Source: a virus (Duplodnaviria; Caudoviricetes). Taken from it: a DNA stretch of 45,778 bases. The position numbers were made by a program, and so were the translations under genes. This document shows, piece by piece, positions 8,783 through 42,106 of the stretch. Where the stretch lies: positions 1-45,778 of the IMG/VR virus record IMGVR_UViG_3300037422_000629; one strand, 5' to 3'. The notes below the pieces were generated by a model. It saw only the letters and a program-made list of their open reading frames with translations. It had not been told where the DNA came from and ran no database searches. How positions within the stretch are numbered: position 1 is the first letter of the stretch; every line of letters begins with the position of its first letter.

Positions 8783-8836
8783 GGCGTGAATCGTCAATCG
8801 TGAAGAGATGGTTCTTCACGATTGACGATTCACGCC
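8783..8836. repeat. Perfect 24-bp inverted repeat with 6-nt loop and heptamer periodicity
   Basis: GGCGTGAATCGTCAATCGTGAAGA-gatggt-TCTTCACGATTGACGATTCACGCC, downstream of the tail tube gene. Confidence 0.92.
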
Positions 8837-10708: not shown

Positions 10709-11032
10709 TCAAGCCTCTTCTCCGCCGATGGTCTCTCCGGCTGCCGCGCCGCCGGCGTCTGTCGCAATGATGTCGCCGGCGGCCAGCGGCGCGCCTCGGA
10801 TGGCGCCGGACGCCGGCGACATCGGTTTGGCGATTCTCACTTCCACTTTCTCGCCGGCGGCCAGCGGCGCGTCATCCCCTTCGTCCACGTCGAGCCGCAG
10901 CGCCAAAACGTGCGGCCTATCCCCGTCGCCGCCGCCGAGCCGGACCTCAAAGAAGCCTGGCCCCGGGCTGACGCTCGTGACTGTGGCCTCAAATTTGGCA
11001 ATCATTTGATTTCTTTGCTTGCTCATAGCCAC
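10709..11032 (-). CDS. Hypothetical protein
   Basis: RBS GAGGAG; fills the gap in the structural operon. Confidence 0.6.
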   Translation of the reverse strand: MAMSKQRNQMIAKFEATVTSVSPGPGFFEVRLGGGDGDRPHVLALRLDVDEGDDAPLAAGEKVEVRIAKPMSPASGAIRGAPLAAGDIIATDAGGAAAGETIGGEEA

Positions 11033-11064: not shown

Positions 11065-11976
11065 TCATCGTAATTCAATCACACTGACATTGACGTTTGT
11101 AAACGTCGCCGTGCCGCCCGTCACCGCCGCTTGTTCGAGGTCAATCCAATAAGCTGTGCCGATGGTCAGCCCGGTGACAATCGCTTGGCGGCTAAACGGG
11201 TTTACTACCGTTCCGGTGGCTGAACTGGAGACGACGCAACTGCCGCCGATAGTTCCGCCGACTTGAGTTCCGGTCAAAGCCGCGCCGTTGGCCGGCGCGG
11301 CTCCCGTGCCGTAACGAATCGCCCCTTTGTAGCCGTTGTCGCCAGTTCCGTTAGTCCCTTGCCCCGAAATTATTATCAGGGCGACGCCTGATGTTTTCGG
11401 GGTGAAAGCAACGGCTAACCCGGCGTGAACTCCGGTCGTCGAAGTCGTGCCAGTGGGATTGGCTCCGGTTGACGAGCCGTAATTCGCCGCCCGGCAATAA
11501 CTCACGCATCTGATGACATCAGAGCCTTCCGAGACTATACCCATCACATCGCCGGCAGAGGTTTTGACGTTTTGCGCGTTGGGCAAAATCAAGGTCGCAC
11601 TGTGCGTCAACGTCAACGCGCCGGCGAATTTCAACCAGGCGACGCGCCCGGCTTTGTCGGTGGCGAAATCAATATCGGTAATCGTCGTCGTGCCGGTTAC
11701 GTTAAAGTAACCGCCCTCGCCTAACGAGATGGCCCCGGCAGAAGCGATGTCTGAGCCTTGCTCCCACAGCGCAGCTAAGGCGTCAGGCGTTACGGTTTTG
11801 CTGGTGTTCGTGCCGATCAGCACATCGGTTGTTGATGCTAAAGAAGCGCCGCCAATCGTTTCTATCTTGTCAAAGACCGCGTTTTTTGTGGGTGCGTTTA
11901 GATCCCCGTCCCAACCCGCGCCATATGCGGCGTCGGAAATCGGAAGTTGTCTGACGGCCACCAAGGTTTCTGCCAT
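11065..11976 (-). CDS. Putative fibre/decoration structural protein
   Basis: G/T/S-rich; AS..DV..GT...K.VTP..L fibre motif; DIASA..I.LG...YF.VTGTTTI; beta-rich C-terminal domain. Confidence 0.65.
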   Translation of the reverse strand: MAETLVAVRQLPISDAAYGAGWDGDLNAPTKNAVFDKIETIGGASLASTTDVLIGTNTSKTVTPDALAALWEQGSDIASAGAISLGEGGYFNVTGTTTITDIDFATDKAGRVAWLKFAGALTLTHSATLILPNAQNVKTSAGDVMGIVSEGSDVIRCVSYCRAANYGSSTGANPTGTTSTTGVHAGLAVAFTPKTSGVALIIISGQGTNGTGDNGYKGAIRYGTGAAPANGAALTGTQVGGTIGGSCVVSSSATGTVVNPFSRQAIVTGLTIGTAYWIDLEQAAVTGGTATFTNVNVSVIELR

Positions 11977-11983
11977 TATTCAC

Positions 11984-12811
11984 CTATTTCCTGTATGACG
12001 CCCTGAGTTTCTCGCCGCTCAACGGGGCGGTCGTCATCGTGATAGTGGCCCCGCTGATGGTGTAATCGTTACCCCCGCCCGACTCCTGTAAAACCCCGTT
12101 CAGATACAAGTGTTCGCTGCCAGCAACGGGCGTGTTCGCCAGCGTAAACGTCGTGTTCGAACCGTTGATGGAGCCGCTGGGAATCTCCTTGTCAACGAAA
12201 TTCGAGGAACTTAGCCCAGTGCTGTTGACCTGCTGCCAGGTGATGGCGGTGGTCTCTAACGTGCCGCCCGCATTTGAAACGCAGAGCCAAATGGTGTCAG
12301 CGTTCGTCGAACCCTCTTCGACTATCACCAACGCGCCCGGAACTTCGGCCCAGTTGTCCATATCCGTCACGCGGGTCAAGGCCGAGCCGGAGCCGTTGAA
12401 GGTGTAAATGCCGTTCTCCGCCGACGCGCTCTGGTTTTTGAGCAACAGGCGCTCGCCGTTGGAGAGCGTCACGCCGTCGAAGGAGGCCGTGCCGGGATTG
12501 CTGACGTTGACGTTGCCAGTGGAGGCCGCCCGCGCCGAACCCTTGCTGTCAAACAAGGAATTCAAATTGGAGATAGCTGTGTCAACATAATCTCTGGTGG
12601 CGGCGTCCGTCCCGGCGGATGGCGTGCCAAGGTTGGTGATGCGGTTGCCGCCATGCGATTGGTTGCCGGTGAAGGCCACCGAGCCGTCTTTGTTGACGAA
12701 ATTGGCGCCGTCCGCCAATTTGCTGCTGGCAATAGCGGCTCCGGCGGCGACTTTCACGTTGTCAATCGCGCCGTCCGCAATTTGTCGGTTGGTAATCTGC
12801 GTTGTCGCCAT
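11984..12811 (-). CDS. Putative fibre/decoration structural protein
   Basis: RITNL.TP....DAAT..YVD and R.AST.N....DGVTL..GER.LLKNQ....ENGIY fibre-type motifs. Confidence 0.7.
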   Translation of the reverse strand: MATTQITNRQIADGAIDNVKVAAGAAIASSKLADGANFVNKDGSVAFTGNQSHGGNRITNLGTPSAGTDAATRDYVDTAISNLNSLFDSKGSARAASTGNVNVSNPGTASFDGVTLSNGERLLLKNQSASAENGIYTFNGSGSALTRVTDMDNWAEVPGALVIVEEGSTNADTIWLCVSNAGGTLETTAITWQQVNSTGLSSSNFVDKEIPSGSINGSNTTFTLANTPVAGSEHLYLNGVLQESGGGNDYTISGATITMTTAPLSGEKLRASYRK

Positions 12812-26987: not shown

Positions 26988-28274
26988 TTACTGCGTAAAA
27001 TTGTAGTTGATGACGCCCGTCACCTTAACCGGCTGGCCCGAAAGTAGGGTGGGCGAAAACCGCGCGCCCTGCGCCGCCGATACAGCCGCCGCTTGCAGCA
27101 ACGGGTGGCCGGACACGGCACGGGCCGAAATGACGCGCCCCTGCTCGTCAATCGTCACCTGCACGACCACCGTGCCGGAAGCGCGGGCGGCCTTGGCGAT
27201 GGCCGGATACGCCGGCTTGGGTAAACTGACGGCCTTGCCGTTCAACACGCCGCCGTCAAGCGGGACTGTTGGTCTGGGTGTCGGTGCCGATTCAGGTGTC
27301 GGCGGCGGTTTGTGCAGTGTTATGGCGCTACTTATTTCACCGCTCTCAAATGACGGCGCATCCGATGGCGCGGGTTCGACCTCTGTGAACGCCGTTTCGG
27401 GAATTTGCGCGGGCGACGCAATCCGCTCATACACTTCGCCGGTCAGGAAATTGTACAACCACACTTCTTGCAGCTCGAAAAGCAGGGCGTTGAGGTGGTT
27501 GTGCCTATCGTAAGGGTCGTCAATTTCCGGCGTCTCATTATCGTAATCGTGGGCCGCGGGCCGCTCCGCCAGATAGCCTATGCATAACACTCTCAAGCTG
27601 CTCTTGGCGGCCCTGGCCTGTTGAGGGCCGCACCGGAGAGTAAACATAGCCCGGCGATTACCCAGACTGTCGCTCAACTCCGGGAAGGCCCTCAAACTTT
27701 CGCCGCTGAACCCTAACACATAGTCGTCGTTGCGATAGACCTGCACACGGGCCTGGCGGTTAAAGGCCGTGCGGCCAACGTAAGCGGCGACGCGCTTGCT
27801 CAGGGAAACCCATTGCAAAATCTGACAATCTTTACACGGCGCATCGTGCAGGCGGTATTCCCATTGCCAACTAAAGTTGATTTCCAAGAGGCCCAAATCG
27901 GCGTGATAAGTCTCGGTTAATTGGTTCTGGTCGCCGTTCCCGAAGGCGAAGGCCAACAGGTCGCCATAGCGCACCTTCCCGTAAGCGGCTTGCCGGCGCA
28001 ACTTGTCCAAGCGGCTTTGATACTCCGCCGTCGTCTCGTACTTATCCTTTTGCCACTTGGCTTGTTGTTTGATTAAGGCCGACCAGAGGCCGGCCAGGTC
28101 ATGGCCTAAGTATCGTTTGGGCAGGTTTTCGGCGGAGGTGTCGAAGGGTTGAGTGTCAAAGGCCGGCGCAGGCGGTTTCTGCGCCGGGCGGCGCGGTTTT
28201 TGAGCGCACACCACAGCGGCCAGCGCCAGGCAACATAACCAAGAGGTTAGCCGTTTTATGAATTGCGCCCTCAT
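26988..28274 (-). CDS. Secreted protein with C-terminal TonB domain
   Basis: Signal-peptide-like N-terminus, Pro-rich linker, GGVLNGKA.SLPKPAYP..AKA...SGTVVVQVTIDE.G.V.SA..VSGHPLL..AA..AA..ARF.P. Confidence 0.88.
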   Translation of the reverse strand: MRAQFIKRLTSWLCCLALAAVVCAQKPRRPAQKPPAPAFDTQPFDTSAENLPKRYLGHDLAGLWSALIKQQAKWQKDKYETTAEYQSRLDKLRRQAAYGKVRYGDLLAFAFGNGDQNQLTETYHADLGLLEINFSWQWEYRLHDAPCKDCQILQWVSLSKRVAAYVGRTAFNRQARVQVYRNDDYVLGFSGESLRAFPELSDSLGNRRAMFTLRCGPQQARAAKSSLRVLCIGYLAERPAAHDYDNETPEIDDPYDRHNHLNALLFELQEVWLYNFLTGEVYERIASPAQIPETAFTEVEPAPSDAPSFESGEISSAITLHKPPPTPESAPTPRPTVPLDGGVLNGKAVSLPKPAYPAIAKAARASGTVVVQVTIDEQGRVISARAVSGHPLLQAAAVSAAQGARFSPTLLSGQPVKVTGVINYNFTQ

Positions 28275-32702: not shown

Positions 32703-33749
32703 ATGACGAAAGCAACACAAGCCTTAGCCGTGCGCGAGCCGGCCCCGCCGCCGGCGGATTACCAGCAAGAGGAGATTCAACTCATCAAGGATACGGTCGC
32801 CAAAGGGGTGTCCGACAGCGAATTGCGGCTGTTTCTGCACCTCGTCAACCGCACCGGCCTGGACCCCCTCGCGCGCCAGATTCACGCCGTCAAACGTTTC
32901 GACGGGCGGTTGGGGCGCGAAGTGATGACGGTGCAGACCGGCATTGACGGCTACCGGCTCATCGCCGACCGGACGGGCGAGTACCTGCCCGGACGCGACA
33001 CGGAACTCACGTTCGACGAAGGCGGCCAACTGGTCTCGGCCACCGCCTTCGTCAGACGCTTCCGGCACGGCGAGTGGCACGAAATCGCGGCCACCGCCCA
33101 TTGGGCCGAATTCGCTCAAACGAACAAAAACGGCCAACCGGCGGCGATGTGGGCGCGGATGCCCCGCCTGATGCTCGGTAAATGCGCTGAAGCGTTGGCT
33201 TTACGCAAGGCGTTTCCGGCTGAGTTGTCGGGCCTCTACACGCGCGAGGAGATGTCACAGGGCGAGACCCAGGCCCCTTCGGAATTCCGCCAGGCGGTAG
33301 AGCGCGCCCAGCCGCCCGCCGCCGGCGCGACCAACAGCCGCGTCGGCGTGGTCCTCAAACTGTGCCGGCAACTGGACGAGTTGGGCGAAATGCTGGACAT
33401 CAAAAACCGGCAGGGTGAAGGGCAACAATTGCCCTTCACCGGCGAGACTCTCGAAACCATGCTGCGCGCCAAACGCAAGGGGTTGAAAAACCTCGCCGAC
33501 GCCACCGACGAGGAATTGGCGAAGGCGGAACAATTCTTGCGCGACAAATTGGCCGCCGCCGGGGAGCGGCACGAGCGCGCCGTAGCTCTGGCCGCGCTCG
33601 ACGCCGCGCTGACCGAAGCCGAAATGACGCTCGACGATTGGTGGGCGCAGGAAGCCGCCAACTACGACGGGCGCGCGTTGGCCGACCTGACCGCCGAAGA
33701 ACTTGAGGCCGCCGCCACCGCCTTTGGCGCGCCGGAAGGAGAAATTTAA
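32703..33749 (+). CDS. bet: Bet/RecT single-strand annealing protein
   Basis: EL.LFL....RTGLDPL.RQI.AVKR, QTGIDGYR.IA.RTG.Y, W..MP..ML.KCAEA.ALRKAFP..LSGLY..EEM. Confidence 0.93.
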   Translation: MTKATQALAVREPAPPPADYQQEEIQLIKDTVAKGVSDSELRLFLHLVNRTGLDPLARQIHAVKRFDGRLGREVMTVQTGIDGYRLIADRTGEYLPGRDTELTFDEGGQLVSATAFVRRFRHGEWHEIAATAHWAEFAQTNKNGQPAAMWARMPRLMLGKCAEALALRKAFPAELSGLYTREEMSQGETQAPSEFRQAVERAQPPAAGATNSRVGVVLKLCRQLDELGEMLDIKNRQGEGQQLPFTGETLETMLRAKRKGLKNLADATDEELAKAEQFLRDKLAAAGERHERAVALAALDAALTEAEMTLDDWWAQEAANYDGRALADLTAEELEAAATAFGAPEGEI

Positions 33750-34445: not shown

Positions 34446-34510
34446 GGCAAGCGTTGAGTGTTAAGCAAGCGCTTGCTTAACACTCAACGCTTGCCCAAAC
34501 CTTTTTTTTT
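34446..34510. repeat. Perfect spacerless 50-bp palindrome followed by a T9 tract
   Basis: GGCAAGCGTTGAGTGTTAAGCAAGC|GCTTGCTTAACACTCAACGCTTGCC at 34446-34495; T run at 34502-34510. Confidence 0.95.
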
Positions 34511-35360: not shown

Positions 35361-36135
35361 AAGCCCGACGCTACGCCAGGTGCGGAAACTAATAAAACAG
35401 GCACAGGACTCCGCGCCGGCTTCGATTGCCGCTTGCGAGCCGTGCGGCGACACCGGCTGGCGGTTCATTGAGCGCGACGGGCGACGCGGCAATGTCGAAT
35501 GCGATTGCCGCCGGGAGCGCCGCATCAAGGCGGCGCTGGCGCGGGTCGAACGCCGGTTTTGGGTGAACGGCCAACCGCCGCGCCTGGCGGCGTTGCAACC
35601 CCGCGCCGATTTGGTGAGCGATAAATCCCGCGCCGCGTTTATTGCCGAACGGCAAGCCGCCGCTATCGGCCAAATGCGCCGCGAACCGCTGGCAAGTTAC
35701 TTTTTCGCCGGGCCGCGTGACGCTGGCAAGACGCACCTGGCGTATGCGCTCTACGTTCACGCAGTAGAAAACACGAATCGCCGCGTGTGGGCCGGAACGG
35801 TAGCCGACTTGCTGAACCAATACCAAAAAATGCAAGGCAGCGAACCGGGCGCCGACGGCAAGCCTTTCGTGGCGGAGGTGTTGCCCGAAAATCTACGCGG
35901 TTACGAGTGGACAATTTTGCTTGATGAAGTGGCCTACGTTCGCCCGACGGCATTCCGGCACGAGAAGTTTTTTGACCTCATAGACGCCATTTGGAAGAAC
36001 AGCCATCAGTTACTTTGCACGTCGAATCTCACGCTTGACGCATTAAGCGCAAAGTGGGATGCGATTTCCGGCGGGAACGGCGAAGCGATTATCAAGCGCT
36101 TGACCGCCGACGCTTACCGGGTGGGATTTTTTTAG
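35257..36135 (+). CDS. DnaC/IstB-like helicase loader ATPase
   Basis: C..CGDTGW...CDC Zn motif, GPRDAGKTHLA Walker A, ILLDE Walker B, TSNL; exact start uncertain. Confidence 0.88.
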   Translation: MPLTLVQPSPEAEATDNPLAAKSSSLPGKLSAICESPTLRQVRKLIKQAQDSAPASIAACEPCGDTGWRFIERDGRRGNVECDCRRERRIKAALARVERRFWVNGQPPRLAALQPRADLVSDKSRAAFIAERQAAAIGQMRREPLASYFFAGPRDAGKTHLAYALYVHAVENTNRRVWAGTVADLLNQYQKMQGSEPGADGKPFVAEVLPENLRGYEWTILLDEVAYVRPTAFRHEKFFDLIDAIWKNSHQLLCTSNLTLDALSAKWDAISGGNGEAIIKRLTADAYRVGFF

Positions 36136-36513
36136 ACCTTTTGATAAGTAAGATGGTCACAAGTGGACTAATACGAAGTCGGACAAGGCCATCCCCATCT
36201 GCGCCGGTGCGCTGCCGGCGGCGTGGCTGATGACGCCGACAATTTGACCAGCGCCGATTGGGTGTGGCTTGAGTTGAGCGACGACGAAGCGGCGGATTAT
36301 AAACGCGAGGGCTTTTTGCTGATTCAGGTGGAGGTTGTCAACCTCACGCCGTAAATTGTCAAAGTGGAGGTTTTCGTTCATGGGCTGTACACGCCCGATG
36401 ACGTCCCTAAGCCGCGCGCCTGGATGACGACACCGGAGCGGCAACAATGGCTTAGTTCAACCTGGGAGTCGCGCGAATGGCGCGGCATGGTGGGAGTCGG
36501 TTTTTGGGGGAAG

Positions 36514-36951
36514 ATGATGAGCCAAGCCTTAACGGTCAGTGAATTGCTTTGGCGGGCCGCCGGCGCGCCGGCCCTGCCGTCGGACGAGCGGGCCGGACTT
36601 TGCTGTCTGTGCGGCGCGGAGTCTGCCGGCGCGCCGTTTGCCCGATGGGTGAAGGATTCTTTCACGAATTGGGATTTGCTCCACAGCGGCACGATTGCCT
36701 GCCGCGCATGTCTGTTTTGCGCCGAGGAGCAGAGCCGCCTGTTGCAATCGCTAACGGGCCGGGAGAAACCGCAAAAGATGCGCACCTACTCGCATTTCAT
36801 CGTCGGGGGTAGGTGGCGAGCGCTCACAAAAGGCGAAAAGCCAGAGATGCGCCGCCTTCTCGCGCAGAACCCGGAGGTGGCGGTCATCAGCGTCACGGGG
36901 CAAAAGCACCTGTTGTTTCGCGCCCGCGCGGGCTGGTGGCAGTTCGAGGAG
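36514..36951 (+). pseudogene. csf1: Csf1 (type IV Cas8-like) N-terminal fragment
   Basis: CCLCG...F..W...SFT.WD.L.....C..C...R.YSH....W..L.K......L......I...GQKHL.FRA....QFEE; the frame then runs into low-complexity sequence. Confidence 0.65.
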
Positions 36952-37052
36952 ACGGCACAGGCACGCTCTCCGGCTTTCGCCCCTCCTACTGGCTGCCAGC
37001 CAACCAAACCCGCTGCCGCCTGCCGGAAGCCTACACCGACCCCGCCGCCTGA
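36951..37052 (+). pseudogene. csf3: Csf3 (type IV Cas5-like) C-terminal fragment
   Basis: A different frame reads GFRPSYWLPANQTRCRLP...*, matching the G.RP.YW...NQ..C tail typical of Csf3. Confidence 0.55.
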
Positions 37053-37071
37053 TTCCTCGCGGCGTAAAATT

Positions 37072-37135
37072 TTTCAGGAAATTTATAAATTTCCTGAAAC
37101 CATTTGGCATATTCTTACGTAGATATATATAGATT
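37072..37135 (+). promoter_or_regulatory. Perfect 28-bp palindrome and AT-rich promoter of the inserted cassette
   Basis: TTTCAGGAAATTTA|TAAATTTCCTGAAA at 37072-37099, then TTGGCA and a TATA-rich -10 region. Confidence 0.7.
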
Positions 37136-37181
37136 GGAGATAACCAGTCCAGTAGCATCAGTTACAGAAGGGAGAGAAAAT

Positions 37182-37624
37182 ATGGTAGAGCAAAATATAA
37201 CCTATGTTCATGGCGCACAGGGGCAGCTATATGCGGAGGTAGCGAGCGCAGAAATAGTTGCCCCTGCGTCACTTTTCGGGCGGACTTGGTATTTTGAGTA
37301 CGCCAAATTTGGCACGCAAACCTTGCATCTTTGGCAACTCGGAGGCGGTCTGCACAACCCGCAGGAGATTGAGGCTCTGGCCCTGGCCAAACCGTCACTG
37401 ACCGCCAAAATATCTACGGCGGCGGGGATTGGTTCGTCGTCGGGCCGGAGTGGATTTGGTACGTCCAGAATAACGGTTCGGACGGCGGGGACTGGGCCGC
37501 CAACAACGTCAGGACGGGGGGCGCGGGCGCCATGGGCTGGCGCGTGCCGCACACGCCGGACCTGGAGGCCCGGATTAACGGTTTTGAAGCCGTTTTGGAG
37601 TCGGAAAAAGATGAGCGCCCATAG
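37182..37624 (+). pseudogene. Hypothetical phage protein split by a 1-bp frameshift at ~37373-37400
   Basis: ATG 37182 with RBS GGAG. The protein-like continuation TVTDRQNIYGGGDWFVVGPEWIWYVQNNGSDGGDWAANNVRTGGAGAMGWRVP is in the -1 frame and stops at 37622-37624. Confidence 0.7.
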
Positions 37625-38582
37625 CCTGAGCTACCGCGAACTGCTCGACCTCGTGCCACAAGTAGAGCCGGAATTATGGCGGGTGGTTTACCCCCGCCGT
37701 TATAAAAAGGCCGACGCCTGGGGCCTGCCGCAACTGGCGTCGCTCGCCGCCGCCACCGGCGTCAAGCTCCTGCGCGATGCGCCGCAGGATGCTTCGGTAG
37801 TGGACAGAAACGTCTATCGCGTGGCGGCGGGGCTGGCCGCGCACCAGTTTCCGGCCTTTTTCCCCACGCGCGAGTTGTGCGAGGCGGCCCTGGCCAGCGC
37901 GCCGCCGGAAGGTCTGCGCTGGAACGCGATGCGTCTGCCCTACGAGGCAGCCACTTTCTGCCTGCCCGCCGGCTGGCTTCAACACTCGACTGCCGGCGCA
38001 GTGGATTTTATCTCCTATGCCCGCACACGCGCCGGCGACGAATTTGTCTTTCCCCTGCCCGGGTGCCCGCGCTTCGCCCTGTTAGACGACGCCTTTACCG
38101 TCGTCACGGCGCTGCGCCGGAGGCGGAATTTCCCTATCTTGGAGAGCACTCTCAGCGCGGCGCAGCGCCCCTACGCCAACACCGATGACCTCCTCATGGG
38201 CGAATACCGGCCCGAGGGTCTGTTCATACGAGCGCTCGACGATGCCGACGCGCGCTGCCTGAAGATGTGCGAGGCGTTAATTTTGCGCCTGCTGCTGGCG
38301 ATGCAGGCGCGGCCTGCGCTGGTGGAGCGGGGCCGCGCTGCCGGAAGGCACAAAAAGTTGGGCGTGGAATTGTGGACACCCACCGTCGTCGGGCGCAACT
38401 ACCGCGTGGCGCGCTCTGCCGGCAGTGCGGCGGCGGGCGTGAGCGCCCGCCCGCGTATGCACTGGCGGCGCGGCCACTTCCGTCAACAGGCCGTCGGGCC
38501 GCGCGGCGGCGGCGCGCACAAAACTATCTGGCTCGAACCTACGCTCGTTGCCGCCGGTGGCGACCAAGAAAGAACACTATGA
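37611..38582 (+). CDS. Hypothetical protein with C-terminal HWRRGH.R.Q..G...K..W..P motif
   Basis: RBS GGAG and ATG 37611; 323 aa; the motif is recognisable from uncharacterised phage/MGE proteins. Confidence 0.75.
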   Translation: MSAHSLSYRELLDLVPQVEPELWRVVYPRRYKKADAWGLPQLASLAAATGVKLLRDAPQDASVVDRNVYRVAAGLAAHQFPAFFPTRELCEAALASAPPEGLRWNAMRLPYEAATFCLPAGWLQHSTAGAVDFISYARTRAGDEFVFPLPGCPRFALLDDAFTVVTALRRRRNFPILESTLSAAQRPYANTDDLLMGEYRPEGLFIRALDDADARCLKMCEALILRLLLAMQARPALVERGRAAGRHKKLGVELWTPTVVGRNYRVARSAGSAAAGVSARPRMHWRRGHFRQQAVGPRGGGAHKTIWLEPTLVAAGGDQERTL

Positions 38583-39283: not shown

Positions 39284-40290
39284 AACGAGCGATAATTACC
39301 ACCAGCCGCGCGCAGAAACTGGCAGCCATCAATGCGTTGAATGCGTTGCACCGGAAGTGTCTGGTCATTTTGCCGCGCGCCGAGCAATCCGTGTTACAAG
39401 ACTTGGCCGTGCCGCACGAGCATCTTTTCCTCGAGCAGATGAACAAGGCCGTCCTGTTTCTCGATTTTCAAACTAAAGTCAACCCGGACGTAATGGTTGT
39501 GGTCTATAACGCTTTGCGTTACAGCACGCCCAACAACACAAAATACAACCGTATTTACCAACTGACAGCTACCGCGCAGAACGTCATGGTGTGCGACTCG
39601 TTTCCCTTCGTCTTTGACCGGCGCAATCTGTGGGTGCTGCAAAAAATACTGGGCGTGGCGCGCTATCACCACAAGCAATTCTATGACGACGGTTTTTTTA
39701 TCGAGCGCGAGGGCCGGCGGCTGGCGGCCAACAGCCTCGAAGCGGTTTACCCGGACTTGCGCCCTTACCTGGAGACCGATTTTGCGCCCCTGCGTTACGA
39801 ACTGCACGCATGGCAACACACAGCCGAGGAGCAATCCCTATATGAAAGCAAAAAACGGCGTGCCATTTACGAAAAAAACTACCCCAAAGTGCGGGTTGTG
39901 ACCTCCCTGCAAGGCTTCGCCAATCGTTTCGAGAGTAAGTTCGCCGCTTTGTGCCAGGCGCTGGCCGGGATGGGCGGCCGGCCCTTAATTTTCTACAACT
40001 GGGAGGAAGGCATCCGCCAGCATCGCCCGCGCGTGCCGCTCACAGCGGATTTAGTAAGCTACCATCAGGAGACCCCGAACTGCGCCAGCGCAGTCGTCTT
40101 CTACGAGACGATTATCAACCAGAAAATACATTTCTACGATAAGTTAGCGCAGTACGCCGCCGCCCCGTTGCACCTGTTTCTTAATCCGAAGTTGGGCGCC
40201 GACCGGCTGGCCGCCAATGCCACCATCCAAATACTGGAAGAGTTGAACGCCTTCGCCGCGTTCGACTGGAAGGGGATTGCCAACCCATGA
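39280..40290 (+). CDS. Degenerate SF2 helicase-like protein (no intact Walker motifs)
   Basis: RBS GGAGG, 336 aa, alternating beta/alpha pattern, VVVYNALR where a DExx motif would be expected; coupled to ibrA; family call tentative. Confidence 0.45.
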   Translation: MKRAIITTSRAQKLAAINALNALHRKCLVILPRAEQSVLQDLAVPHEHLFLEQMNKAVLFLDFQTKVNPDVMVVVYNALRYSTPNNTKYNRIYQLTATAQNVMVCDSFPFVFDRRNLWVLQKILGVARYHHKQFYDDGFFIEREGRRLAANSLEAVYPDLRPYLETDFAPLRYELHAWQHTAEEQSLYESKKRRAIYEKNYPKVRVVTSLQGFANRFESKFAALCQALAGMGGRPLIFYNWEEGIRQHRPRVPLTADLVSYHQETPNCASAVVFYETIINQKIHFYDKLAQYAAAPLHLFLNPKLGADRLAANATIQILEELNAFAAFDWKGIANP

Positions 40291-41441
40291 ACCAGACGGA
40301 CGCCCAACAACGTCGGCTACTGAAAGCCAAGGTTTACAATCCGCGCCTCAACGTCTATGAGGCCGCGCTTGAACGGCTGAACTTCGTGTTTGACCGGCAC
40401 GAGAAAATCATCGTCTCGCTGTCGGGGGGCAAAGACAGCGTAACGATGCTCTATCTGGCGTTGGAAATCGCTCGCCAGCGCAACCGGAAGATTTACGCTT
40501 TCTGGCTTGACCAGGAGTTCGAGTACAACTCCACATTTTTGCTTATCGAAGAGCTAATGAAATTGGAGTATGTCGTGCCTTTGTGGTTTCAGGTTCACGG
40601 CATTCTGCCGACGGCCATCTCGCACGAACAATACTGGCTGCAACCCTGGAATCCAGCGGAGCGTGGGCGCTGGCTGCGGGCCTACAAGCGCGTCAGCATC
40701 AAGGAAATCACCTGGCCGCACGACGTGCCGTATTCATTTCCCGCCGAGCACAAAATGGGCTTCTACGGCCTGATGAAATGCATGGAGCAAATGTTCCGTG
40801 CCGAAGATGCGGCGCATTTGATAGGATTGCGCGCTGAAGAGAGCCTCAACCGCTTCCGTGCCGTTACGCGACACCCTGGCGTGGAGGGCGTCCCATGGAG
40901 CACGCGCAACCGCTGGGGCGGCGTCAAATACTATCCCCTCTACGACTGGACGTTCCACGACCTGTGGGTGTATGCCGGGCGCAACCATCTGCGCTACAAC
41001 AAAATGTACGACTATTTCTGGAAAAAGGGTTATTCCTTGAAAGAAATGCGTATCAGTAGCCTGATGAACCGCAAGGCGTTCGGCTGTCTGGCGGACATAC
41101 AGGAGTTTGAGCCGCGACTGTACGACGCCCTGCTGGAACGCGCCCAAGGCGTCAAAACGGCCAGCCTCTACGCTGACGAAGGGCGGATGTACCAGGCGCG
41201 CAAATTACCCCGCGCCTTCGACACTTGGGCCGCCTATCGTGATTTTTTACTGGTGACGCTGCCCGACCGCAGACACGCGGAGATTTTCCGCGAACGCTTT
41301 GCCCAGCAACTCGACAACGAATACGTCGCGCGGCAACAGGTCGCTCAGATTCAAATCCACGACCTAACTAATTCGCGCAAAATTGACAACGCGCCGGACC
41401 CGGCAATAAAGAGGAAACAACAATGGATGGACGAATTGTAG
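40287..41441 (+). CDS. ibrA: IbrA-like PAPS reductase/CysH-family protein
   Basis: NVYEAA.ERL...F......VS.SGGKDS PP-loop, DQE.EY, IGLRAEESLNR, YP.YDW...D.W, YN..YD, MR.S. Confidence 0.9.
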   Translation: MNQTDAQQRRLLKAKVYNPRLNVYEAALERLNFVFDRHEKIIVSLSGGKDSVTMLYLALEIARQRNRKIYAFWLDQEFEYNSTFLLIEELMKLEYVVPLWFQVHGILPTAISHEQYWLQPWNPAERGRWLRAYKRVSIKEITWPHDVPYSFPAEHKMGFYGLMKCMEQMFRAEDAAHLIGLRAEESLNRFRAVTRHPGVEGVPWSTRNRWGGVKYYPLYDWTFHDLWVYAGRNHLRYNKMYDYFWKKGYSLKEMRISSLMNRKAFGCLADIQEFEPRLYDALLERAQGVKTASLYADEGRMYQARKLPRAFDTWAAYRDFLLVTLPDRRHAEIFRERFAQQLDNEYVARQQVAQIQIHDLTNSRKIDNAPDPAIKRKQQWMDEL

Positions 41442-42106
41442 AGGCTCTGGCCGTGCTGACCACGGCGATTGAGGCGGCGCCCGACGTGGACGCGCAGATT
41501 GATTTGCTCAACTTTATTCGCGGGCAGCTGCACGCAGTGTCCCCGTTGCGCCATCACCCGGTGGATTTGGTGGTGTGGGAGCGCGCGGCTAACCTCGAGG
41601 CAAACGACTACAATCCCAATCACGTTGACCGGCGCAACATGGAGTTGCTGCGCCACTCCATCCGCGAGGATGGCTACACTATGCCCATCGTCACCAGCGA
41701 GGAGCAAATCCCAGCGGAGGCCGGCGGCGCGCCGCGCGCGGCTATCAAGATTGTTGACGGTTATCACCGGCGGAAGGCCGAACGCAGCGATAACCTCATC
41801 AGCCGTTCAACTTACGGGCGCATCCCGCGCACCCAGATTCGCAACGAAAAACGCGACCTCAAATCCCGCATGGCAAGCACCGTCCGGCACAACCGGGCGC
41901 GCGGCGTGCACGGCGTGGAACCGATGAGTTATCTGGTCGTGGAGTTGGTGCAGTTAGGCTGGTCGGACGCCCAAATTGCCCTTCACCTGGGCATGGAGGC
42001 GGACGAAGTGCTGCGCCTCAAACAGGTGAGCGGCATCGCCGAAATCTTCCAACATCTGGAGTACACCGCGTCATGGACTTTCCAGGAACTCGACGCTTCC
42101 GGCTGA
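41423..42106 (+). CDS. ibrB: IbrB-like ParB/Srx-domain protein
   Basis: HPVD.V.W......ANDYNPN.V...ELL..SI..DGYT.PIV, IVDG.HR, R.ASTVRHNRARG.H, LGM..DEVLRLKQ..G. Confidence 0.9.
   Translation: MDGRIVEALAVLTTAIEAAPDVDAQIDLLNFIRGQLHAVSPLRHHPVDLVVWERAANLEANDYNPNHVDRRNMELLRHSIREDGYTMPIVTSEEQIPAEAGGAPRAAIKIVDGYHRRKAERSDNLISRSTYGRIPRTQIRNEKRDLKSRMASTVRHNRARGVHGVEPMSYLVVELVQLGWSDAQIALHLGMEADEVLRLKQVSGIAEIFQHLEYTASWTFQELDASG

Follow-up and report, generated by a model that had tools for sequence, protein, structure and literature searches.

The genome of a tailed phage, represented by a single virus record, very probably carries a real deletion scar in which the 5' part of csf1 runs, in a different frame, into the last 33 codons of csf3 (Table 1); the window, as the term is used here, is the whole stretch of DNA that was analysed, namely, that entire record of 45,778 bases. 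Judged by gene content, the locus is a remnant of a CRISPR-Cas system of type IV-B, not a working member: csf1 (5' two thirds) and csf3 (last 33 codons) are present, and the signature backbone gene csf2, cas11 and a cassette-type cysH are absent. A previous sequence-only reading of this DNA proposed that a deletion had joined the csf1 5' end to the csf3 3' end, and this is now borne out by intact parents of both genes and by contigs of both forms.

Table 1. Features of the csf1-csf3 scar and of related regions in the window
Feature	Positions	Strand	Remarks
RecT-family single-strand annealing protein	32703..33749	+	Pfam RecT, E 1.7e-25; candidate deletion maker (putative role)
Probable protospacer	36398..36435	+	from 36401, far end approximate; ATG at 36398-36400; 26 repeat letters directly before 36401 (run X1)
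csf1 5' part (type IV Cas8-like, two CxxC)	36514..36957	+	148 of ~221 codons
Imperfect direct repeat: second block within csf1, similar to the csf3 DNA that lies just upstream of the joint	36922..36935	+	length approximate, deduced
Deletion joint, common word GACGGCA (6-7 nt microhomology)	36951..36957	+	from X2 contig and P0021 comparison
csf3 (Cas5-like), last 33 codons and stop	36951..37052	+	lacks a start codon; in the -1 frame with respect to csf1
Out-of-frame read-through tail of the csf1 ORF, 54 codons	36958..37122	+	no homologue alignment
Perfect 28-bp AT-rich palindrome, just 3' of the csf3 stop	37072..37099		self-BLAST
Probable second protospacer	37299..37335	-	ends at 37299, far end approximate; preceded there by 29 repeat letters (run X1)
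IbrA-like PAPS-reductase/DUF3440 gene and downstream partner (IbrB-like)	40287..42106	+	Pfam; outside the cassette

Identification of the csf1 and csf3 fragments

The open reading frame that begins at 36514 encodes two CxxC motifs and is matched by four type IV Cas8/Csf1 models, the best of which, PADLOC Csf1_0_IV (E 5e-15, 36514-36951), identifies the 5' fragment as Csf1, in line with the original proposal; the frame had no match in NCBIfam or Pfam, and a search of PDB sequences with the Csf1 alignment gave best E values of only 0.28 and 0.7. The start codon is uncertain (36424, 36487, 36514 or 36517), and a possible ribosome-binding site, GGGGGAAG, lies immediately 5' of 36514. Among 151 candidates, 20 Csf1 homologues were found. 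The intact Csf1 P0021 (PADLOC Csf1 model, E 3.8e-17) and its cluster mate P0002 are identical to the window through 36957 and then continue as normal Csf1 proteins, with 73 residues of P0021 missing from the window protein. The continuation found in the window aligns with none of the 19 other homologues, and the product of the chimeric frame, P0001, forms a one-member cluster. The sequence-only reading placed the loss of protein-like character right after WWQFEE (~36951): the break is confirmed and its exact point is not, given that Csf1 identity extends two codons further.

The second frame reported for the 3' fragment, GFRPSYWLPANQTRC with a stop at 37052, is present as claimed. Taken alone, the csf3 tail was matched by no model of PADLOC, NCBIfam or Pfam; a custom Csf3 profile of 64 sequences, none of them from the window, ranked it first among 1648 six-frame segments (E 7e-4, against 0.13 for the next). 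The relatives were retrieved with the Csf3 of locus L002 as the query (58 proteins among 170 candidates), and the C-terminal 34 residues of one intact member, P0033, are identical to the last 34 of the window tail. P0033 itself scores as Csf3_0_IV (E 1e-37); csf3 remained under the NCBIfam cut-off (46 vs 140 bits). The two segments thus belong to two different Cas proteins and not to a single non-Cas protein. The palindrome that follows the csf3 stop is possibly a terminator or operator of the former operon; a terminator scan did not call it, and no sigma-70 promoter was detected in 36000-37700.

Intact relatives and the probable content of the deletion

The Csf1 alignment was used to fetch 76 loci (68 viral and 8 genomic, not de-replicated), which were examined with csf profiles seeded from L002, a locus whose genes are named Csf1, Cas11, Csf2 and Csf3 by PADLOC. 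The combination of csf1, csf2 and csf3 is present in 69 of the 76, and these complete loci mostly include a cysH-like gene (66/69) and a detectable cas11 (61/69); of the remaining seven, four are cut off by a contig edge and three appear to be broken internally (L021:6360-6920, L055:150-767 and L073:2616-3078). In L073, from a Blastocatellia bin, csf1 itself has lost an internal part, and the 8 kb downstream contain no further csf gene. In the FastTree phylogeny, the parent Csf1 groups with L001, L002, L069 and L013 with moderate support (86-92); the gene order is csf1-cas11-csf2-cysH-csf3 in all four of these loci, and the points that match the two sides of the joint lie 2858-3701 nt apart. 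By comparison with these relatives, whose Csf1 identity of 45-57% bounds the precision of both size and content, the deletion likely removed about 3 kb, probably including cas11, csf2 and cysH, the latter because the four nearest intact loci all hold cysH between these points. The window contains no recognizable remnant of csf2 or cas11 (best E 0.025 and 1.7, respectively); the middle genes of the parent were not recovered from viral and metagenome contigs searched by protein and by DNA, a set from which close records may be missing, and its own cysH was not found among the best 120 of 315 matches. The original claim that one deletion removed the 3' part of csf1, cas11, csf2 and most of csf3 is accordingly upheld directly for the ends of csf1 and csf3, and through relatives for the loss of cas11 and csf2; several successive deletions instead of one are possible.

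It was further suggested that relatives might carry an intact array-less complex directly downstream of the replication genes. Intact cassettes do exist, in the 69 complete loci, but the position was not recovered: none of the 76 loci has a tblastn match to the two replication proteins of the window, and a set of 77 flank ORFs, selected in seven loci, includes one replication-initiator-like gene, 5 kb upstream in L002.

The relatives show several other variations. An extra gene for a cysteine-rich protein of 270-283 aa is found inside the cassette, at differing positions, in L001 (9987-10799), L069 (8629-9480) and L004 (9003-9815); the inserts of L001 and L069 appear alike by eye. L026 carries two tandem csf3 genes (11193-12500), and in L017 (12193-13113) the N-terminal part of csf3 is duplicated and no cysH was found. 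A Cas12u/Cas12f-like gene of 620-665 aa together with a CRISPR array lies beside the IV-B cassettes of L040 (11898-14400, directly after cysH), L062 (from 9335 onward) and L063 (from 10814 onward), and a CRISPR array is also present in L061. Finally, a four-repeat CRISPR mini-array (L029:66-330) is located about 7.7 kb upstream of one cassette and a Ro60/TROVE gene (L004:3461-5263) 2.6 kb upstream of another.

The PAPS-reductase gene that the window does retain was considered as the CysH of the cassette and rejected: its product falls with five homologues into a group of 95% support that excludes 61 other rows, and each of these five adjoins a homologue of the partner gene in the window. The pair is IbrA/IbrB-like. 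An IbrA/IbrB-like pair accompanies a IV-B cassette in five of the 76 loci (L033, L044, L056, L059 and L060) and is also found in this phage (39247-42106).

Relationship to known type IV systems

In the available text of two studies, type IV-B consists of csf1, csf2, csf3, cas11 and a cysH-like gene, with no array, and its function is presented as unresolved, with crRNA sponging as one hypothesis that one of the papers calls unlikely (PMC8175902; PMC7038947). The Csf complex of Mycobacterium sp. JS623 is described, in the accessible part of the corresponding report, as assembling on heterogeneous RNA (PMC7937560). The window locus resembles IV-B systems such as that of JS623 in its Csf1 and Csf3 families, in the gene set of its nearest relatives and in carriage by a mobile element, which is here evident from the terminase, portal, coat, tail, integrase and repressor genes; unlike them, it keeps two gene ends only. 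It differs further in that it likely belongs to a Blastocatellia phage, whereas the JS623 system resides on an actinobacterial plasmid, and in that cysH precedes csf3 in its nearest relatives, unlike in JS623-type loci.

Virus-borne IV-B cassettes have been published for Fuxivirus (PMC10848311) and a Methanoperedens virus (10.1101/2023.08.02.551345), and for Fuxivirus a host spacer that targets its cas7 gene is reported. As far as the accessible text of these sources goes, the likeness lies in a five-gene cassette within a virus genome (here, in the intact relatives), and the differences are the bacterial host, the lack of a mini-array, the deletion of the cassette and the existence of a near-identical sister with an intact csf3.

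As in IV-B systems, no array, Cas6, DinG or adaptation genes were found in the window with Rfam (0 matches), a crude k-mer scan and Pfam on 46 ORFs, an absence that applies to the window and not to the deleted interval. Assignment to type IV-A was rejected, the window having no DinG, Cas6/Csf5 or array and the nearest loci carrying cas11 and cysH. Type IV-E, for which an in-frame Csf3-Csf1 fusion is described in the consulted portion of PMC7038947, was rejected as well: the pieces in the window are out of frame and their order is the reverse.

The phage and its probable host

The window has a terminal overlap of 232 bp (self-BLAST), and is therefore probably a complete circularised genome. Pfam analysis of its 46 ORFs identified terminase, portal, P22-type coat, tail, baseplate and lysin genes, along with an integrase, a repressor pair, RecT, HU and an IstB/DnaC-like ATPase, a combination of structural genes, integrase and repressors that points to a tailed phage of temperate lifestyle. 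Sequence affinities suggest a Blastocatellia acidobacterium as the probable host: the top genomic matches of Csf1 come from Pyrinomonadaceae and Blastocatellia bins, and the TonB-domain DNA of the phage is up to 78% identical to Blastocatellia genomes. A 19.7-kb phage query found matches in 224 of 401 genomes of the single class searched (218 of 395 when six genomes marked unpublished are set aside), and among the 150 matches listed nearly all have the TonB domain as their target.

The phage gene at 26988-28274 (minus strand), which encodes a TonB domain at the C-terminus, closely similar to genes of Blastocatellia hosts, and adjoins the repressor, is possibly a superinfection-exclusion or host-derived gene. 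Other repeats in the window are palindromes at 34446-34495 (50 bp, after HU) and 8783-8836 (55 bp, in the tail region), both detected by self-BLAST, and a short direct repeat of two copies with a 78-base period in the structural region (10772-10870).

Structure and origin of the joint

Three runs are listed for the stretch, none of them on record as RNA; X1 and X2 cover most of it, and X3 contributes a small share in short pieces only. The evidence on the joint comes from contigs, not reads. In X1, which may be the source sample of the window, an 862-nt contig covers 36401-37236 and crosses the joint with 0 differences, at a depth of 8.9; the contigs on its two sides reach 11.3 and 10.6. A 962-nt contig from X2 agrees with the window from 36951 on and continues upstream of the match with 596 other bases; its 30 loose letters, read by hand, encode EWPHDWSVE, a stretch of P0033. 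Because one contig bridges the joint and the other has csf3 upstream of it, the deletion is very likely real and not an assembly error. Further differences at 37122, 38042 and 38063 indicate that the X2 phage is a sister strain. Most of csf1 is without cover in X2 (77% of the run covered), which proves nothing about csf1 there, and a loose end at 36925 in this run was rejected as derived from an unrelated contig.

The limits of the joint are set by the X2 contig, which differs from the window at 36950 and further upstream and agrees with it from 36951, and by the csf1 frame, which matches P0021 through 36957; the seventh base of the shared word is deduced from the P0021 protein and is thus a probable one. 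The X2 csf3 contig can be aligned back to 36922 with 6 gaps, and at the second block of similarity, whose csf3 counterpart is about equally far upstream of the joint, the -1 frame reads PRGL, as in P0033. The window retains the csf1 version between the two blocks, which places the exchange in the downstream word. In each of the 69 intact loci, csf1 and csf3 have exact words of 8-13 nt in common, which implies that such short repeats arise by chance; accordingly, only their position at the joint is informative, not their existence.

We infer that a single event, recombination or slippage between the short imperfect direct repeats in csf1 and csf3, would have been resolved within the shared word of 6-7 bases, possibly by the RecT of the phage itself. 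Before the loss, the parent likely formed the array-less filament of RNA and Csf protein that is usual for such cassettes, acting together with CysH, and the event likely left behind a dead cassette; given that no complex can form without the Csf2 backbone, the phage likely propagates without it. The locus is, then, a real and ordinary gene-loss relic.

An alternative origin would be escape from CRISPR, in which the host type I-B system made a cut within the cassette and the ends were resealed at the microhomology by the phage recombinase; we consider it unlikely that this was the cause. Its basis is that two X1 contigs have loose ends, at 36401 and 37299, that correspond to one CRISPR repeat in opposite orientations joined to phage DNA, on either side of the joint and at most 560 nt from it. 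A 22-base part of this repeat is present with at most 1 mismatch in 40 of 301 genomes of the single class searched (38 of 299 without two marked unpublished), often within arrays that have a period near 71-73, and in genome G035 an array that shares the last 29 bases of the repeat adjoins Cas7/DevR, Cas5/DevS, cas1_MYXAN and Cas2, so the repeat probably belongs to Myxan I-B arrays. A Myxan I-B Cascade prefers an AYG PAM, including ATG, according to the available text of PMC11096372. Such a PAM precedes one of the two sites in the window (ATG, before 36401), with the array known from G035 and not from X1; at the second site, no AYG is found at spacer lengths of 34-38, and TTG is read by hand at 36. 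To judge from these repeat-phage junctions, two or more spacers against this phage are likely present in a host in X1. Phage T4 provides a precedent, in that it evades Cas9 and Cas12a through minihomology deletions made by its recombinase (accessible text of PMC8262927); the scar is similar in being a deletion at a few shared bases that may involve the phage's own recombinase and differs in that the enzyme would be RecT, not UvsX, the host system would be type I-B, and CRISPR is here only a candidate cause. Against escape, both protospacers that were seen are still intact in the window, there is no known spacer against the deleted DNA, the 2.6 kb covered out of 45.8 kb permits no claim of clustering at the scar, and a spontaneous deletion needs no CRISPR cause.

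Among the loose ends listed for X2, with 2.6 kb of the phage covered, there was no repeat end, a result that supports no claim of a contrast between X1 and X2. None of the 85 spacers from arrays in 14 loci matched the window. The idea that the window carries a decoy repeat was rejected, as a search that allowed up to 3 mismatches found the host repeat nowhere in it.

An intact phage whose joint is a chimera of assembly or of the library appears very improbable. Imperfect repeats do lie on both sides of the joint, X2 does contain the intact form, and the joint is seen in only one of the two main runs, the one that may be the source sample; but the X1 contig is unbroken across the joint at close to the flanking depth, and no intact-form contig was found in X1 (95% of the run covered), with the proviso that contigs drop rare variants. 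Word-based assembly does not join contigs through a 7-base overlap, which is far below the assembly word length. Hardly credible is the retention of the truncated zinc-finger Csf1, or of a -1 frameshifted Csf1-Csf3 fusion, as a functional protein such as a decoy: 148 codons are kept without a stop and with both CxxC motifs, but what is retained does not differ from the intact parent, as a recent loss predicts, the chimera is a singleton whose joint occurs in none of the 76 loci, and no slippery run is seen at the joint.

Implications

Phage-borne IV-B has already been published, and the sister pair together with the spacers lifts the scar slightly above a plain relic. The window phage and its near-identical X2 sister with a whole csf3 likely form a natural knockout pair, in which a contiguous intact operon of the sister is presumed from the csf3 side that was seen. 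It is conceivable, if quite unlikely, that IV-B shields the phage from the host type I-B system, with the X2 sister protected and the X1 deletion lineage targeted, or that host targeting forced the excision of the cassette.

An intact cassette is available in a cultured phage. Among 50,697 phage records, only that of Skermania phage SPI1 matched Csf2, and its orf40-44 (KR011061.1; L102:3837-7470), annotated only as hypothetical proteins, score as csf1, cas11, csf2, csf3 and cysH. We found no literature that links SPI1 to CRISPR or type IV, although Faure 2019 or Al-Shayeb 2022 may list this phage. SPI1 could serve as a bench system, including for a direct test of the anti-CRISPR idea.

The scar leaves the question of IV-B function unanswered, but it demonstrates that loss of the cassette need not keep a phage from being abundant enough to be assembled in full. 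Near-identical phages with and without the cassette, with host spacers visible, offer a cheap read-level test of the anti-CRISPR idea; if true, the shielding or forced-excision reading would tie IV-B directly to CRISPR conflict.
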